Shown: positions 11,742-63,936 of the stretch, one piece after another | Numbering within the stretch: the first letter of the stretch is position 1 | Layout of the letters: every line of letters starts with the position of its first letter | Assembly (NCBI GenBank): GCA_029548485.1 | Contig: JAKPNH010000006.1 | Span: 13,937-77,936, forward strand | From: a bacterium | GTDB lineage: Bacteria > Patescibacteriota > Minisyncoccia > UBA6257 > Colwellbacteraceae | DNA: 64,000 nt | Reading direction: 5' to 3' | Translations under genes and position numbers: made by a program | The notes under the pieces: model-generated | What the model saw: only the letters and a program-made list of their open reading frames with translations | Database searches by the model: none | What the model was told of the DNA's origin: nothing

Positions 11742-11810
11742 TTTTCTTTTATCTTATTCCTTGTTTTCTTCAGAAAAGATCAAAAATCCCGTTAAAACGG
11801 GATTATCTAG

Positions 11811-11882
11811 TGCCCCCGGGAGGAATCGAACCCCCATTACGAGATCCGCAATCTCGCGTCCTATCCGTTGAACGACAAGGGC
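11811..11882 (-). tRNA. tRNA-Arg (anticodon GCG, an unusual isoacceptor). CCA is not encoded.
   Basis: Manual cloverleaf: anticodon loop TTGCGGA. The D-loop and T-arm are nearly identical to tRNA-Arg(TCG) at 25217. Confidence 0.7.
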
Positions 11883-11978: not shown

Positions 11979-12692
11979 ATGGCCAAGAACTACAAAAAGG
12001 ATTTTTCCTATTCATACGCCGTCGGCGTTTTTCCGGTAATCGAGCTTTTAAGAAATAAGCCTGATAAAGCCACTAAGGTCTATATCCATCCGAAAGGCGA
12101 GAGGAACACCGGCATAAAAGAAATAGTGGACATTTGCGGAAAAGCGGACATTCCGATCGAGAAAAACGGCCGCTTTATCGAAAAAGTCTCTTCAAGCGAG
12201 AATGTTTACGCGGCCGCTGTTTTCAATAAATACGAGAGCCGATTAAATCCGGACGTGAACCATGTGATCCTGGTGAATCCGAGCGATCCGGGAAACCTGG
12301 GAACGATCTGCCGGACCATGATCGGATTCGGCTTCTCCGATCTCGGGATCATCAAGCCCGGAGCCGATATTTTCGATCCGAAAACGATCCGGGCGTCCAT
12401 GGGCGCGATCTTCCAGCTGAATTTCCGATATTTTTCTTCATTCGAGGAGTATCAAAAGAACTTCAAGCAGAACGTATATGTTTTCATGACCGACGCTAAA
12501 GAAACTTTGGGCAGGTTCTCTTTCAAAAAACCCTATGTTTTCGTGTTCGGAAACGAGGGAGGAGGACTCGATCCAAAGTTCAAAAAAATAGGCGACAGCA
12601 TAAAAATCCCGCAAAGCGGCAAAGTGGATTCTTTGAATCTTTCGGCGGCCGTGGCCGTGAGCCTCTACGAAGCAGGGAAGCCGAATCTTTAG
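11979..12692 (+). CDS. SpoU/TrmH-family RNA 2'-O-methyltransferase
   Basis: 'NPSDPGNLGTICRT', 'VFGNEGGGL' and 'SLNLSAAVAVSLYE' are the SPOUT methylase motifs. Confidence 0.85.
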   Translation: MAKNYKKDFSYSYAVGVFPVIELLRNKPDKATKVYIHPKGERNTGIKEIVDICGKADIPIEKNGRFIEKVSSSENVYAAAVFNKYESRLNPDVNHVILVNPSDPGNLGTICRTMIGFGFSDLGIIKPGADIFDPKTIRASMGAIFQLNFRYFSSFEEYQKNFKQNVYVFMTDAKETLGRFSFKKPYVFVFGNEGGGLDPKFKKIGDSIKIPQSGKVDSLNLSAAVAVSLYEAGKPNL

Positions 12693-13183
12693 AGGGGCCT
12701 AAGCGGATTGTTCCGCAAGATATCTTCCACTTCTTCGAATCCTTCGGGAAAAGCGAAGTTATATCTCGCCGGCAAAGCAAAAACGTAATTTTGGTTCCGG
12801 CCGAGCTCCATCGGAGGGATCGGCGCCGCGGAAACAAAAAGATCGTCCGCCATCACCTTGGTCCATTGATCGATGGTGAAAACCATGATCGGAATATCTT
12901 GTCTCGGTTTTTCTTCGGTCCAATGCGGATGCCTGATGAAAATAAGCGGACCCTCTTCGGAAAAGATATCTCCCGTTTCTCCGGGGATATGCCCTTGCCA
13001 AACGGATTCGACGATCGTGTATCCTTGCCAGCTTAACGGTAGGTCAAAAGAGAATCCATGTTGGCTGTTTTGATATTCAAGAGAAGTCGTCGGCTGATCG
13101 ACTTTGTTTTTTAAAACGTAATAGCTCGCGAGGCCGATCGCGGCGATCAAAATGAGGATCAAAAGGACATTTTTGTTTTTCAT
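12689..13183 (-). CDS. Secreted/membrane-anchored hypothetical protein
   Basis: Signal-anchor 'MKNKNVLLILILIAAIGLA'. Its start overlaps the stop of the upstream gene (ATGA). Confidence 0.5.
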   Translation of the reverse strand: MKNKNVLLILILIAAIGLASYYVLKNKVDQPTTSLEYQNSQHGFSFDLPLSWQGYTIVESVWQGHIPGETGDIFSEEGPLIFIRHPHWTEEKPRQDIPIMVFTIDQWTKVMADDLFVSAAPIPPMELGRNQNYVFALPARYNFAFPEGFEEVEDILRNNPLRPL

Positions 13184-14229
13184 ATGCCAATTTTATCTCC
13201 GAAAGGTCGGATCTCCAAATCCACGAAATCGACCAGATAGCCGTCTACTTCGTCTTTTTTCTTGTACTCGAAAACCGGCCGGCTGTCTTTGAAAATAACG
13301 ATTCTGTCTTTTTCCGCCACAAGACTGTCTCCGAGAGACAGATTTTGTTTTACCCGGTTTTCTACAAAGGTAAACGGCGGCACAGTTCCAGTATATTTCA
13401 AGATTCCATTTTCCACTTTTCCGTCGAAGGCGATCCAGTCGAAAGTATTAAAAATCAAGAAAGGCCTTTGTAAGGCATTCTTAAAGAAATCGAACAACTC
13501 GGGAATATTCTCCTTCATCCATTTGGCTACCAGGCGTCCGATTTCGACGCTTTTTTCGCAATCATAGCGGCAAGGAAGATGGGTGATGAAAGAGACATTC
13601 AACAAATTTATTTCTTTTTCTTCATTGCCTGCGGCCATAAGGAATTTTAGATGATTGCTTTCGCTGTTTTTTCTCCAATACTCATCAGCGTTTTTAAAAT
13701 CTTCGGGAGTGTCGAGCCTGGTCGGGAAATTCAGAAGGTTATTGATGACAAACGGAGCAGATTGATTCGGAGGAAAAATATCGAATATCAGTTGGCGTCC
13801 GCGGATATAAGGGGCTTGGGTCACTCTTTTAACATGTCTTTTGACGCAGCATTCGGGATACCCGAGAAACTTTCCGAGTTCGTAGTTATTCGAGACGTTC
13901 TCGGCTGCCTGCTCCGCCAGACGTCGATCTCGAGAAATCAAGGCGATTTCTTTTCGTTCTCCTAAAATATTTTTATTTGTTTTGACGATATGCGCTTCCG
14001 GAAAAACGGAACGAAAATTCTCGATTTCGGCTTCCTTGTAAGCCGCGTAAATTACCGGTTTTATACCGATGATGAAACTTATCAGTTCGGAGATGTAAAT
14101 ATCAGAAGTATATTCGGCGCCGAAATAGGAGGCGATAATGTCCCGGTAGTTCATAGGTTTATCGTGTCGCTGCCACATTCGTTTTGTGGCTTGCGGTATT
14201 TTTCTTCGACAAAATCCCTGCTTTTCCAA
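13180..14229 (-). CDS. Hypothetical Cys-motif protein ('GYPECC..H', 'HLPCRYDC')
   Basis: A long ORF with possible metal-binding or thiol-active motifs. No family was recognised, and the true start may be an internal Met. Confidence 0.5.
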   Translation of the reverse strand: MEKQGFCRRKIPQATKRMWQRHDKPMNYRDIIASYFGAEYTSDIYISELISFIIGIKPVIYAAYKEAEIENFRSVFPEAHIVKTNKNILGERKEIALISRDRRLAEQAAENVSNNYELGKFLGYPECCVKRHVKRVTQAPYIRGRQLIFDIFPPNQSAPFVINNLLNFPTRLDTPEDFKNADEYWRKNSESNHLKFLMAAGNEEKEINLLNVSFITHLPCRYDCEKSVEIGRLVAKWMKENIPELFDFFKNALQRPFLIFNTFDWIAFDGKVENGILKYTGTVPPFTFVENRVKQNLSLGDSLVAEKDRIVIFKDSRPVFEYKKKDEVDGYLVDFVDLEIRPFGDKIGI

Positions 14230-14315
14230 CGATATCCATTAAGTAAGACATAATCTACATAGATAAATTACACGAGAAAGCCTTTTTCGACAACAAAAAA
14301 GCCCATACGATATCA

Positions 14316-14567
14316 TCATCGTATGGCCGCAGCCCGCTTTATCGGGCCAAGATTTCGGCCGCCAGCCTTTCTATCAAACAAAAGTTCTGTCCAGCCTTCC
14401 GGGATATAGTCTCCGGAGGCGATAAGCCGTTCGTATTCGTCGATCCATCCCTCGACGTTTTAGTCTCCTTTGATTTCGACGGAGACACCTGACTCGGCGT
14501 GGATAATACGGATTTTATTGTAGGGTAAATCGGGTGACGCGGCAATGAGTCCGAATCTCGGTTTCAT
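14316..14567 (-). pseudogene. Small ORF interrupted by an in-frame TAA at codon 36. This is either a pseudogene or a readthrough candidate.
   Basis: Manual translation gives 'MKPRFGLIAASPDLPYNKIRIIHAESGVSVEIKGD*NVEGWIDEYERLIASGDYIPEGW...'. It is protein-like on both sides of the stop in the same frame. Confidence 0.5.
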
Positions 14568-14616
14568 GGTATGATTACAATAATTGTTGAAGAACAAATA
14601 AGGTAAGAATCATTTC

Positions 14617-15039
14617 ATGCAACCCTGGATTATTTATTCTTTGCTGTCGGCGATTTTCGCGGCTTTGGTTGCGATTTTGGGAAAGATCGGAGTCCAAAAT
14701 ATCGACAGCACCTTGGCCACAACGGTCCGCGCCTTTATTATGGCCGGATTTTTGTTTTTGACTGTCTGGTTTTCGGGAAAATTGCCGTTATTGGGCACCA
14801 TTCAAAGCGGCCCCTTATTGTTTATTGTGCTGTCGGGCATCGCCGGCGCCGTATCCTGGCTATTTTATTTTCTGGCCCTCAAACAAGGAACAGCCACCGG
14901 CGTGGCTGCTTTAGATCGATTGAGCATCGTCTTTGTGTTGATTTTTTCATTATTGTTTTTGGGCCAAAAGCTCACTTGGAAAGCGGGCATCGGAGCGATT
15001 CTCATGGTTTTCGGCGCGATTTTGATGACCCTTCAGTGA
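14617..15039 (+). CDS. Small DMT-superfamily (EamA/SMR-like) 4-TM transporter
   Basis: 140 aa with four hydrophobic helices ('ILGKIGVQ', 'LALKQGTATGVAAL'). Confidence 0.65.
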   Translation: MQPWIIYSLLSAIFAALVAILGKIGVQNIDSTLATTVRAFIMAGFLFLTVWFSGKLPLLGTIQSGPLLFIVLSGIAGAVSWLFYFLALKQGTATGVAALDRLSIVFVLIFSLLFLGQKLTWKAGIGAILMVFGAILMTLQ

Positions 15040-15966: not shown

Positions 15967-17385
15967 ATGCCGGAAAATAAAGAAAATTTGGAAAAGCGTT
16001 CTCCCGTAGTCGTGGTCTTGGGACACGTCGACCACGGCAAAACCACGCTTCTGGACTGGATCCGCAAAACCAAGACCGCCGAAAAAGAAGCCGGCGGCAT
16101 TACCCAATCGATCGGCGCCTATGAAATCATCCATAACGGCGAAAGAATCACTTTTTTGGACACCCCGGGACATGAAGCTTTCAAGGCGATGCGGCTTCGG
16201 GGCGCGACCGTGGCCGATATGGCTATTTTGGTCGTGGCTGCCGACGAAGGGCTGAAGCCCCAGACCGAGGAATCGATCAGGATTTTGAAAGAAACGGAAA
16301 CGCCTTACGTCATCGCTTTCACCAAAACCGACCTTCCGACCGCCAATATCGAAAAGATACAAAATGATCTGGCGGCCAAAGAGGTTTTGCTCGAGGGCCG
16401 GGGTGGAGACGTGAGTTGGCAGGCGGTTTCCGGCAAGACCGGCGAAGGCGTGAATGAACTTTTGGACTTGGTATTACTCCTGGCCGAGTTTTTGGATTTG
16501 ACTTTCGATCCCGGGATCGAAACCCGAGGGTTTGTTATCGAGTGCCGCAAAGATCCGAGGCAGGGAAATATCGCAACGCTCATCGTCAAAGACGGCCTTT
16601 TGGAACCGGGAATCGCCATCAAAACCCTGACAGCCGACGGAAAAATAAAAATACTGCAAGATTATGCCGGCCGGCCGGCGGAAAGCCTCAGGCCTTCGAG
16701 TCCGGCTTTGGTGATTGGTTTCAACAACCTTCCGCAGATCGGCGAAGAGTTTATTGTCGGGGACGGAAAGCTGACAGCTCCGATCGTTGAAGGAATCAAA
16801 GCGGCGGAAAAAGAAAAACAGGAATTGAGGCCGGCGGTGCTCAAGGCCGACGTGGCCGGATCGCTCGAGGTCTTGAAAGATATTTTCAGCGATAAGGTGA
16901 ATATTCTTGAGGCTTCGGCCGGGGAAATCACCGACGGCGATATCAAAACCGCCATTTCCGGGAAGGCTTTCATCATCGCCTTCAGGACGAAAATGAACCG
17001 TTTGGCCGAAGGATACGCCAAGAATCAGCAGGTGAGGATTCTTAGCTCGGAAATCATTTACGATCTGATCGAGCAGGTCGACGATTATCTGAACACTTTC
17101 AAAGAAGAGGAGGCGAGCGGCAAGCTGAAAGTCCTGAAAATCTTCGGCAAAAGCGGCAGCGAACAAACTGTCGGCGGAGAAGTCGTCGAAGGCGCGATCC
17201 AGAACAACCGTCGCATCACTATTTACAGGAACAATATCGAATTGGGCGAAGGCCGGATCATCAATCTTCAGGAAAACAAAGTCGATGTCCAGGAAGTGAA
17301 AGCCGGCAGTCAAGGCGGGCTTCTCGTCGAGTCGTCGATCATCATCAAACCCGGAGATGAAATTTCGCAAAGAGCGGTTAAATAG
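15967..17385 (+). CDS. infB: Translation initiation factor IF-2, a minimal form beginning at the G-domain
   Basis: '[12 protein letters not shown]', 'DTPGHEAF' and the domain layout G / beta-barrel / C2. The protein is 472 aa. Confidence 0.9.
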
Positions 17386-39245: not shown

Positions 39246-40061
39246 TCGGCGGGCCAGGCCGGGGGTTGACACGGCCAAAGGCCTGCCTGTATAATTCCTC
39301 TCAGATGATGATGCGAAAGATTCACATAAAACGCGGCTCATGAAGTCTTAGTTTTGGTGACTGAATGAACCGCGAAAGCGGTTTTTTTGTTGAGACGACC
39401 GGTATTTCAAAAAATGAATATAATTTGCGCCGACAAACACGGCGCAAAGCAGGAGTCCGCAAGTTCAAACTGGCGGACTTAATTGGCATTTAAATGACCG
39501 GTTTATTTTTTTAAGGGCGCATGGAGGATGCCTTGACACAAAGTGACGATGAAGGACGCGGCGTAGCGGCGATACGCCTCGGGGAGGCGCGTAGCAGCCT
39601 TCGATCCGGGGATTTCCGAATGGGGAAACCCAATCCCGCAATCCGGGATTGATTCCGCACGTAAGTTGCGGAATAGTCGACCCGCTGAAGTGAAACATCT
39701 TAGTAAGCGGAGGAATAAAGAACAATTGTTATTCCCTTAGTAGCGGCGAGTGAAAAGGGAAGAGCCCAAACTTGTTTGAAGTTTACGGCGCAAGCCGGAA
39801 ACGGAAAGCGAGGGTAGTAAGATAGAGACATTCTATTTATGAAGCCGCTCGATGAGAAATCGGAGAGCGACTTTATAAATAGAGGAAAGTTACAAAATGG
39901 TTCGTTAGCCGAATGGACTGGAAAGTCCGGCCAAAGGGAGTGAAAGCCTCGTAGGCGAAAACGAATCATCTTTCTTGTTTTTAATCTTGAGTACTTCGAT
40001 GACAGGAAGCTTCGAAGGAATCATCCCGAACTATCGGGAAAGGCTAAATACACTTTGTGAT

Positions 40062-40098
<37 letters not shown>

Positions 40099-42075
40099 CA
40101 GCCCGGTGAGGGCGGTGAAATAGAACTGAAACCATGTGCTTACAAGGACTCGGAGCCCCGCTTCGGCGGGGTGACGTGGTGCCTATTGAAGAATGAGCCA
40201 ACGACTTTATATTGACTGCTCGGTTAATCCCGCTTTGCGGGAGCAGCCACAGGGAAACCTAGTGTTAAAAGCGCGAACGTCCGCAAGGACAAGGTAGTCA
40301 ATATAAGACCCGAAGCCAAGCGAGCTTACCTTGGTCAGGATGAACTTCCGCGAAAGCGGGAGGGAGGTCCGCACCAGTTGATTGTGCAAAATCTTTGGAT
40401 GAACTGAGGTAAGTAGTGAAAAGCTAATCGAGCTTGGTAATAGCTGGTTCTCTCCGAAATAGTTTTAGGACTAGCGCCAAGAACCGCTTTAGCGGGGGTA
40501 GAGCTACTGGTTTGGTGGTAAAGGGCGAAAGCTCGGCCACCGAGTCAAACTCCGAATACCGCTTTAGAAAAACTTGGTAGTCAGACTGCGGAGGCTAAGC
40601 CCCGTGGTCGAAAGGGAAACAGCCCTGACCGTCATCTAAGGTCCCCAAATTCTTGCTAAGTGTTAAAGGCAGTGCCATGCCATCGACAGATAGGAGGTTG
40701 GCTCAGAGGTAGCCATCCTTTAAAGAGTGTGTAACAACTCACTATTCGAATCCCGCTTTGCGGGAGTGGCGTGACGCGCCGAAAATGTACCGGGGCTAAG
40801 CAAGATACCGAAGATACGGATGTTTCGCGCAAGCGAAGCATGGTAGGAGAGCATTTGGAGCGCGCCGAAGGTCGACCCGCGAGAGCGACTGGAGTGCTCT
40901 GAAGAGAGAATGTTGGCATGAGTAACCCACTTAACCGGTGGGAAACCGGTTCCCCGAAAATCCTAGGTTTCCGTGGCAATGGCAATCATCCACGGGTTAG
41001 GCGGCCCTAAGGCAATGGCGAAAGCCGCAGCCGATGGACTGTTGGTTAATATTCCAACCCTTCCATTTCTTTCGACGGGAGGACGAAGCGCAGTAGGCCA
41101 GGCATCTCAATGGTTTGGTGTCCGTGGTCTAAGGATGGCATTCTGGCAAATCCAGGTGCCTGTCTTTGATGGCGAATCCAAGGACAGCGGCGAATCAAAG
41201 CATTTACTTTGGTGAGTTGGTTGAGCGCGTTTCCGCGAAAAATCTCTAAGGTTAAAGGAATGGAATCCGTACCGGAAACCGACACAGGTGGATAGGGCGA
41301 GTAGCCCAAGGGGTACGAGTGATTTCTCTTTAAGGAACTCGGCAAACAAGCGACCGTAAGTTAGCGATATGGTCTTCCCGCCGCAAGGCGGGACGCAGCG
41401 AAAGTCTCTCTGGCGACTGTTTACTAAAAACACAGCTTCCTGCGAACTCGTAAGAGGATGTATAGGAGGTGACGCCTGACCGATGCGAGAAGGTTAACGG
41501 CGGGGGTGAATTCGGAGCAATCCGGATTTGCTCGCTGCCCGAAGCCCTCGTCAATGTCCGCGGTAACTATAACCGTGTTAAAGTAGCGCAATTCCTTTTC
41601 AGGTAAGTTCTGAAGCGCATGAATGGCGTAACGATCAGAGAACTGTCTCAAAGAGAAGCTCGGTGAAAATGCGATTCCCGTGAAGACGCGGGATACCTGC
41701 AGCTAGACAAGAAGACCCCGGGAGCTTTACTGCAACTTGGTATTGGCTTTAGGGTTTGGATGCGTAGCGTAGTGGTGAGGCTTTGAAGTCTTGTTTTCGG
41801 ATGAGACGGAGCCGACGATGAAACAGCCATCTTTCAAACTTTAAACTCTAACCTTAAGGGCAAAAACCTTAGGGAACAGTGCCTGGCGGGCAGTTTTTCT
41901 GGGGCGGAATCCTCCCAAAGAGTAACGGAGGAGTTTATTAAGGTCAGCTTGGCTCGGATGGAAATCGAGCCTGAAGTGTAAAGGCATAAGCTGGCTTAAC
42001 TGCGAGACCCACAAGTCGAGCAGATGCGAAAGCAGAACTTAGTGACCCGACGAATCTTTATAGAAAGGTCGGAGA

Positions 42076-42109
<34 letters not shown>

Positions 42110-42245
42110 GGTGTTGTCCGAGAGTCCCTATCGACGACAACGCTCGGCACCTCGATGTCGGCCCACCCTAGCGCGGGGCTGGAGAAGGTCCCAAGCGTGT
42201 GGCTGTTCGCCACTTAAAAGGGTACGCGAGCTGGGTTTAAACCGT

Positions 42246-42502
42246 CAGTTTGGCGGCTTTCCCGAGCAATCGGGATTGAAAAAGCTTACTCATATCGGTG
42301 AAGTCCTAAACTTATAATTGCGATATAACCTGTCAATATTTAGGATAATACCGAGGGAAGTTTGCTTTATTGAAATAAAGCATAACCCCGTAGAGACTTG
42401 TTCCTGAGGGAACGGATGGAAGAAATCTTCCATAAGACGTAGGCCTCCATTGAAAAATGGATGATGGTATAGTCCACACATTTGGTAACAGATGATTCAA
42501 TG
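42246..42502 (+). other. Intervening sequence in 23S at the L2593 site (a classic group I intron site). 257 nt, no ORF.
   Basis: By alignment to E. coli, the 5' exon ends at U2593 and the element ends in G. It has GNRA hairpins (CCCGA-GCAA-UCGGG; CUUUAUU-GAAA-AAUAAAG). Confidence 0.6.
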
Positions 42503-42565
42503 CGTGAGACAGGTTGGTTTTTATCTGCTGCAGGCGTGAAGTGTTTGAGGGAAGTCGACCCTAGT

Positions 42566-43259: not shown

Positions 43260-43374
43260 CCTGCTCGGTGATTAATCGCATGGTGCACCACCCGATCCCA
43301 TTCCGAACTCGGAAGTGAAAGCCGTGCGGGTCGATGATAGTCCTTTGGGCGAAAGTAGATTTTGCCGGGCATTT
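43260..43374 (+). rRNA. rrf: 5S rRNA
   Basis: 'CCCATTCCGAACTCGGAAGTGAAA'. Helix I is GCUCGGU/GCCGGGC. Confidence 0.85.
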
Positions 43375-63240: not shown

Positions 63241-63936
63241 ATGAAGCAGGATATCCCGGTGGTTTACGAAGACAGAGATCTTTTGGCGGTCGTAAAACCC
63301 GCCGGGATTTTGATGCATCGGACCGCGGCCAAGGAAAAAGAAGAGACGCTGGCCGATTGGATCTTGGAGAATCGTCCGAAGATAAAAAACGTCGGCGACG
63401 ATCCCCGAGTCCGTCCGGGAATAGTCCACCGGCTCGACAAAGACACCTCGGGCATAATCTTGATCGCCAAAAATCAGAATACCTTCGAATATCTGAAGAG
63501 TCTTTTCCAAGCCGGCGAGGTCCAAAAAACTTATCTCGCCCTCGTTTACGGGAATATCGAACCGCAGGAAGGTGCGATCGACAAGCCGATCGGCCTGAAG
63601 TCCGGATCTGTGAAGCGCACGATCCACGGCGGGAAAATGGCAAAACAAGCGATCACCGAATACAAGGTTCTTAAAAACTACGACGGATTCTCTTTGATCG
63701 AAGCGAGGCCGAGAACCGGACGGACGCACCAGATCAGGGTTCATCTCGCTTCGATCAATCACCCGATCGTGGCTGACGCTTTATACGCCGGAAAGAAAGC
63801 CAAGAAAGATTCTTTGGGCCTTTCGCGGCAATTCCTGCACGCTTCGTCGATCGAATTTGTCGGACCGGACAAAACCCGTTTCCGGTTCGAAGCCAAGATG
63901 CCGGATGATTTGACAAGAGCCTTGAAATCCATTTAA
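63241..63936 (+). CDS. RluA-family pseudouridine synthase
   Basis: 'VHRLDKDTSGIILIAK' is the catalytic Asp motif. Confidence 0.85.
   Translation: MKQDIPVVYEDRDLLAVVKPAGILMHRTAAKEKEETLADWILENRPKIKNVGDDPRVRPGIVHRLDKDTSGIILIAKNQNTFEYLKSLFQAGEVQKTYLALVYGNIEPQEGAIDKPIGLKSGSVKRTIHGGKMAKQAITEYKVLKNYDGFSLIEARPRTGRTHQIRVHLASINHPIVADALYAGKKAKKDSLGLSRQFLHASSIEFVGPDKTRFRFEAKMPDDLTRALKSI

Follow-up and report, generated by a model that had tools for sequence, protein, structure and literature searches.

A short minus-strand reading frame at positions 14316–14567 of the window, the whole 64,000-nucleotide stretch of DNA analysed here, raises the question of whether a protein-like frame split by one in-frame stop codon is a decayed gene, an error of sequencing or assembly, or a gene that is read through its stop. 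The frame opens with ATG at 14565–14567, runs for 35 codons (MKPRFGLIAASPDLPYNKIRIIHAESGVSVEIKGD) to TAA at 14460–14462 and continues for 47 codons to TGA at 14316–14318, exactly the coordinates and translation that an earlier note had given on reading the sequence. That note saw no frameshift, only a stop, and offered a nonsense pseudogene, an artefact and programmed readthrough as explanations for an 83-aa protein cut in two. Here we place the frame in its genomic setting, trace its homology and compare it with an intact orthologue.

A stop-split frame in a gene-free gap

The arrangement is not unusual in itself. The pattern of ATG, at least 35 codons, a stop, at least 47 further codons and a second stop occurs 88 times across the window's six frames, so that the bare pattern carries no significance on its own. 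What distinguishes 14316–14567 is its homology, described below, together with its location between a divergent EamA-family gene and a DUF483-like gene, ~460 nt apart with no gene in between (Table 1). By codon-usage log-odds, with 26 long genes of the window as the training set, the 83-codon frame scores +0.19 bits per codon, the sole positive value among the six frames, and its two halves score alike; the value lies at the 5th percentile of real in-frame windows and above 98% of off-frame windows. Gene callers predicted a 35-aa peptide at 14460–14567 in three of four assemblies, a call that is no evidence of expression.

The window as a whole is of Patescibacteria type, uses the standard genetic code and carries 23S and 5S rRNA genes and 13 tRNAs. 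The 23S rRNA match at 39501–42561 spans 3061 nt against a 2925-position model, and the ~136 extra nucleotides may be present as insertions or expansions. The 5S rRNA gene follows at 43264–43370, ~700 nt downstream of the 23S, and because no 16S rRNA was found within the 64-kb window, the rRNA genes appear to be unlinked. ARAGORN reported a tRNA-Arg with anticodon GCG at 11810–11882 (−); bacteria normally read CGU, CGC and CGA with an inosine-modified ACG tRNA, and a GCG anticodon is unusual. The IF-2 gene at 15967–17385 (+) encodes 472 aa, far shorter than typical bacterial IF-2, and appears to be without the long N-terminal region.

Translation starts in the window have features of their own. 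A Shine–Dalgarno-like motif lies within 20 nt of the start in 4 of 24 sampled genes, and A/T-rich boxes similar to a −10 element stand just before many starts, a hint that initiation may be leaderless or independent of a Shine–Dalgarno sequence. The start of the DUF483-like gene, whose Pfam DUF483 match is marginal (27.1 bits), is uncertain among three candidates: TTG at 14229, which opens the longest ORF (349 aa), ATG at 14154 (324 aa) and the public call (332 aa).

The stop codon recurs in independent assemblies

We looked up the neighbouring EamA protein and found contigs spanning the locus in four samples assembled by two pipelines (JGI 3300009720 and 3300025682; Logan SRR22315506 and SRR12762322). 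Over 14100–14700 each of them matches the window at 100% identity. Outside this interval two of the four differ from it, by 5 and 29 SNPs, and therefore the assemblies represent independent strains and reads. An error in the stop, or in the truncated arrangement as a whole, has in its favour only the prior plausibility of such errors in metagenome assemblies; four identical assemblies from four samples and two pipelines reduce it to a negligible prospect, and we reject the sequencing or assembly error that the earlier note had considered.

The spanning contigs of the window's lineage (L001–L004) also share an identical 438-nt gap between the flanking genes, and for this reason the large deletion described below looks fixed in the window's population.

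Strain variation is concentrated elsewhere. Of 29 SNPs that separate the window from the SRR22315506 contig (L003), 26 cluster in a ~750-nt tract at window 12437–13179, which spans the 3′ end of a SpoU methylase gene and a 164-aa gene, and the other ~3.2 kb hold three; the tract looks like the product of inter-strain recombination. Because the SNPs are clustered there and all available strains are identical at 14316–14567, they give no signal of selection on the stub, and none either way on a 35-aa gene.

The frame matches the C-terminal end of a Nudix-like family

Pfam scans of the whole 83-aa product and of its two halves separately gave nothing meaningful, and a word-index protein search with the readthrough product returned no match. 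An exhaustive phmmer search of 1.84 billion representatives recovered the 35-aa ORF itself and one protein, P0002, whose residues 137–179 match ORF residues 27–66 across the stop (library-wide E 8e-7; 59% identity and pairwise E 2e-15 by BLASTP). In this alignment VAVPQKGDENVEGW...EEYETLVTTGNYVPEGWTALLID of P0002 is set against VSVEIKGD*NVEGW...DEYERLIASGDYIPEGWTELLFD of the stub, with KGDENVEGW directly opposite KGD*NVEGW. Further phmmer matches (P0003–P0009), long repeat proteins with several weak stretches, were treated as spurious.

The P0002 family consists of 222–248-aa Patescibacteria proteins, whose source names include Colwellbacteria and Shapirobacteria and which JGI labels 'predicted NUDIX family phosphoesterase'; neither Pfam nor NCBIfam holds a model that matches it. 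A profile built from 24 members (alignment A3) matches PDB 3E57, the 'uncharacterized protein Tm1382' (TM1382) of Thermotoga maritima, with E 3.7e-14 over profile positions 36–133 and a second weak stretch at 155–212, and this match suggests that the parental family is distantly related to TM1382. A literature search on TM1382 returned nothing relevant, and we know of no biochemical function for the TM1382-like family.

By tblastn, 20 of 25 family members match window 14322–14516 across the stop (best E 3.5e-12), and these matches involve only family residues from ~165 onward. The same search over the 64-kb window gave no further credible family fragment or paralogue. A candidate second Nudix-like copy at 63356–63598, suggested by weak matches, proved spurious: on the opposite strand lies an RluA-type pseudouridine synthase gene, and the candidate itself has no hits to the family.

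P0002 is itself unusual. At 186 aa (L007 548–1108), it resembles the 222-aa member P0010 minus an internal 36-residue segment, the segment that holds the family's invariant His and Gly. It appears to be a further Nudix-like family copy, from a different lineage, that is either damaged or a deletion variant.

An intact orthologue occupies the same locus in a related genome

P0015, which of all family members most resembles the stub, is encoded on a short contig (L008) directly beside a divergent 140-aa EamA gene, and a metagenome scan gave the full locus (L011, 2204 bp) on a related Patescibacteria contig. As L008 and L011 encode the same protein they are not independent, and they represent one independent orthologous lineage only. 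The order in L011 is a partial PRAI gene, EamA, a 113-nt intergenic region, an intact 222-codon gene (1072–1740), a terminator and a DUF483-like gene.

Three blocks of L011 align with the window in the same order. L011 3–959 aligns with window 15590–14616 at 82.8% identity, L011 1002–1042 (equivalent to L008 469–509) with 14548–14508, and L011 1587–2198 with 14487–13834. In place of the ~545 nt between the last two blocks (L011 1043–1586), the window has ~20 nt. For the EamA coding sequence, identity with L011 is 86.3% in nucleotides and 95% in amino acids, and the flanks overall are 83–87% identical to the window. Because the three blocks keep their order, we take the 14316–14567 locus to be orthologous to the L011/L008 locus. 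The 222-codon gene of L011 is unlikely to be a fusion artefact, since 23 other full-length family members, on other contigs, align end to end.

Other loci were not useful for this comparison. More distant family members (P0010 and P0013) have a gene context that is not syntenic with the window. The one relative that a scan of a genome collection with the window's DUF483-like protein gave (L006, Patescibacteria UR.bin13) is uninformative on the small ORF, its gene order being rearranged before the contig ends; where L006 1–2337 aligns with window 11979–14229, the 164-aa and DUF483-like genes are in swapped order with SpoU still adjacent, a local rearrangement between related genomes.

Table 1. 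Features in and around the stop-split frame, in window coordinates (*, stop codon)
Feature	Position	Strand	Detail or basis
EamA-family gene, 140 aa	14617–15039	+	Synteny anchor; 86–87% nucleotide and 95% amino acid identity
Promoter block	14508–14548	−	−35 TTGCCG 14545–14540, 17-nt spacer, −10 TACAAT 14522–14517
Composite 83-codon frame, mosaic	14316–14567	−	Orthologue comparison
Deletion junction, ~520–545 nt lost	14488–14508	−	L011 alignment
Surviving 3′ coding remnant of TM1382-like Nudix-family gene	14339–14507	−	IIHAESGVSVEIKGD*NVEGWIDEYERLIASGDYIPEGWTELL, then LIERLAAEILAR*, in the ancestral frames
TAA nonsense codon from GAA	14460–14462	−	GAC GAA AGC (orthologue), GAC TAA AAC (window)
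9-nt in-frame deletion	14443–14444	−	Three residues after VEGW (MIT in the orthologue, MTT in P0002)
4-nt insertion, TTTG duplicated	14375–14383	−	ACTTTTGTTTGATAG (window), ACTTTTGATAG (orthologue)
Ancestral stop position, shifted frame	14339–14341	−	TAA (window), TGA (L011)
Intrinsic-terminator-like hairpin and T-run	14296–14326 (hairpin 14326–14303)	−	CCATACGAT-GATGAT-ATCGTATGG
DUF483-like gene	13180–14154	−	Second synteny anchor; downstream of the intact gene in L011 too

Four lesions separate the stub from its orthologue

We read the lesions from DNA alignments and took the direction of change from the 24-member family alignment (Table 1). The largest is a deletion that took the 5′ UTR with its AAGGAGG Shine–Dalgarno sequence, the ATG and the first ~165–172 codons. 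Among the codons lost are the invariant W-Q-Q, G-G-H-I-E and R-E-x-x-E-E residues (the Nudix-like GGHIE...RELDEE core). The breakpoints possibly share a CGT microhomology, and the right-hand one is placed only to within ~20 nt. The window keeps the last ~57 of ~222 ancestral codons, whereas a full-length member has ~220–250 aa with the core W68-Q-Q, G-x-G-G-H-I-E and R-E-x-x-E-E (L011 numbering). The strong AAGGAGG of the intact L011 orthologue is itself a feature that most genes in the window do not share.

The TAA stands in place of Glu181 (L011 numbering) of the K-G-D-E-N-V-E-G motif. The codon is GAA in the syntenic orthologue, and the residue is Glu in 24 of 24 family sequences, which answers in the affirmative the earlier note's check on whether orthologues carry a sense codon at this position. 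Glu in both orthologue and family therefore supports a nonsense mutation and leads us to reject programmed readthrough. The nonsense pseudogene of the earlier note was correct in that the stop replaces GAA, and too narrow in that this stop is one of four lesions in a ~222-codon gene.

The two remaining lesions lie downstream of the stop and, with the large 5′ deletion, contradict the view that there was no frameshift and only a stop. A 9-nt deletion removed three residues after VEGW that are present in every intact aligned family member. Farther on, the TTTG insertion changes the frame of the 12 codons that ended the ancestral gene to that of the ORF at 14339–14545, where the ancestral C-terminus reads LIERLAAEILAR in the window and LIEKLAAEILAQ in L011; the C-terminus in the family alignment is in agreement with L011. 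That ORF had been set aside as junk, a description that holds except for these last 12 codons, which are the true ancestral C-terminus.

Taken together, homology to an intact gene, its place in the shared order PRAI–EamA–222-aa gene–DUF483, several disabling lesions and the identity of those lesions in four assemblies make it highly probable that 14316–14567 holds the 3′ stub of a ~222-codon TM1382-like Nudix-family gene, a pseudogene of the ordinary kind, disabled several times over. One point on the other side is the mildly positive codon log-odds over the whole frame, its promoter-derived part included. As evidence against a pseudogene, the positive score of the 35-codon half is weak, because it comes from 35 codons of which the last ~15 (from codon ~21) are genuine former coding sequence.

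The 83-codon frame is a mosaic

Comparison with L011 divides the 83-codon frame into four parts of different origin. Codons 1–6, including the ATG, belong to a window-specific intergenic stretch that has no counterpart in L011 and lies upstream of the −35 hexamer. Codons 7–20 (LIAASPDLPYNKIR) match the orthologue's promoter and intergenic DNA. Codons 21–64 follow the ancestral frame and contain the nonsense codon and the three-codon deletion, and codons 65–83 are frameshifted relative to the ancestral gene, with the closing TGA inside the terminator hairpin.

The sequences that flank the coding stub are recognisable in both genomes. The promoter block, which lies downstream of the ATG at 14567, is 83% identical to L011 1002–1042, and a promoter scan of the window flagged the same TTGCCG-17-TACAAT hexamers at 14545–14517. 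The orthologue's terminator has an equivalent hairpin, GGCCATAC-AATT-GTATGGCC, followed by Ts. The equivalent frame in L011 ('...FRFF*KNGVVAATSALPYNKTRSD...') is interrupted by a TAG, has no ATG and differs in phase from the real start. This composition indicates that the 83-codon frame was never a gene and that no 83-aa protein ever existed; the premise of such a protein cut by a single stop fails on the promoter-derived codons 7–20, the frameshifted codons 65–83 and an ATG without counterpart.

The same anatomy bears on programmed readthrough or recoding of the TAA into a functional 83-aa protein. Two points speak for it: the frame does stay open after the stop, and the codon scores of the two halves are similar. 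The family, however, has no conserved stop at this position; of the frame itself, the upstream third comes from promoter DNA, the downstream half contains a frameshift with respect to the ancestral protein, and the catalytic domain is gone. In addition, ordinary genes of the window end in TAA (11 of 26), TGA (9) and TAG (6), and no suppressor-type tRNA was found there. We give this explanation virtually no weight. Its likeness to known programmed readthrough or stop reassignment is confined to an in-frame stop with an open frame behind it; unlike in those systems, the stop is not conserved (relatives have Glu), a frameshift follows it and the genetic code is standard.

Alternatively, the 35-codon ORF at 14460–14567 could be a de novo small-protein gene, in which case the sequence after the TAA would be its 3′ UTR up to the terminator. 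Its call in three assemblies, its positive codon score and the terminator downstream all fit such a gene. Nor does a missing Shine–Dalgarno sequence disqualify it, as most genes here have none; we dropped that argument against translation of the 35 codons, given that only 4 of 24 window genes have the motif. What makes a 35-aa gene very unlikely is that the exhaustive phmmer search found no homologue but the ORF itself, that its ATG lies in a window-specific stretch absent from the orthologue, where the start codon is not conserved and the frame holds a TAG, and that the only conserved promoter (14545–14517) is downstream of the ATG, so that a transcript from it would be without the start codon.

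The decay is probably recent

The core of the remnant, 14487–14339, is 90.3% identical in nucleotides to L011 1587–1740, with 1, 5 and 8 mismatches at codon positions 1, 2 and 3, respectively. The mismatches look as though they keep a pattern of purifying selection, as expected of a fairly recent pseudogene. The remnant core is slightly more similar to its orthologue than the EamA gene is (90.3% versus 86.3% overall, 84% versus 67% at third positions), which is not expected of sequence that has long been neutral. From this comparison we infer that inactivation was recent relative to the split of the window's and L011's lineages. The high identity could alternatively reflect local variation in rate or a degree of constraint on the nucleotide sequence.

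With the promoter and the terminator both retained, an untranslated transcript of ~215 nt may still be made, and the remnant might have been co-opted as a non-coding unit, either as a regulatory RNA of this length or by insulating the neighbouring genes. Several observations fit such a role: neither promoter hexamer has changed from that of the orthologue, the terminator is kept with its stem remodelled but intact, identity between remnant and orthologue stands at 90%, and the folding z-scores of the remnant are −2.2 alone and −2.9 together with the terminator. The coding counterpart in the intact gene of L011, however, folds equally well (z-score −2.3), and because of this the structure of the remnant RNA appears inherited; we saw no sign of new structure. 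An Rfam search of the remnant gave no match even at E up to 1. At ~17% divergence, all 12 hexamer positions would be kept by chance with a probability of ~0.1, and recent inactivation accounts for the conservation without any function. We judge the non-coding unit very improbable.

Co-option in a wider sense, through the ~215-nt transcript or a translated 35-codon ORF, would make the stub a new small RNA or micro-protein. The odds of this are small; if true, it could explain both the 90% identity and the persistence of the stub in a compact Patescibacteria (CPR) genome.

A proposed history of the locus

Decay of a Nudix-like gene, the explanation that we prefer, can be laid out as follows. The ancestral gene would have stood between the divergent EamA gene and the DUF483-like gene, on the strand of the latter, with a sigma-70-like promoter, a Shine–Dalgarno sequence and a terminator of its own. 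A deletion of ~520–545 nt would have joined the promoter region to codon ~166 and taken away the ribosome-binding site together with the start codon and the catalytic Nudix-like core. GAA would have become TAA at the invariant Glu, three codons would have been lost through the 9-nt in-frame deletion, and the 4-nt insertion would have put the last 12 codons out of frame. What appears as an 83-codon ORF would then be a coincidence, in which a window-specific ATG happens to be in frame with promoter-derived DNA and the coding stub, and the frameshifted tail, again by chance, meets no stop before a TGA in the terminator hairpin. The stub probably has no protein function left.

Discussion

Ordinary gene decay in bacteria proceeds by deletion, nonsense mutation and frameshift, with a known deletional bias of bacterial genomes. 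The stub resembles ordinary bacterial pseudogenes in having a syntenic intact orthologue, several independent disabling lesions, intact flanking genes and a partial signature of purifying selection. Nothing essential sets it apart from them, and the feature is a further instance of a well-known kind; its one curiosity is the long, nearly open frame that arises from a fortuitous ATG. Relative to TM1382 (PDB 3E57), the stub corresponds to the C-terminal part of a related family and, unlike members of the TM1382-like family, consists of ~57 C-terminal codons without a GGHIE...RELDEE core.

For annotation, the locus illustrates how promoter-derived DNA fused to a coding stub can mimic a near-intact ORF with one stop and so invite over-interpretation as readthrough. 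The public call of a 35-aa 'protein' here is most likely not a gene.

For the organism, the finding means that one uncultured Patescibacteria-type lineage appears to have lost a Nudix-like gene that a close relative has kept. The loss carries little biological weight by itself, and it fits the ongoing gene loss that is typical of reduced Patescibacteria genomes.
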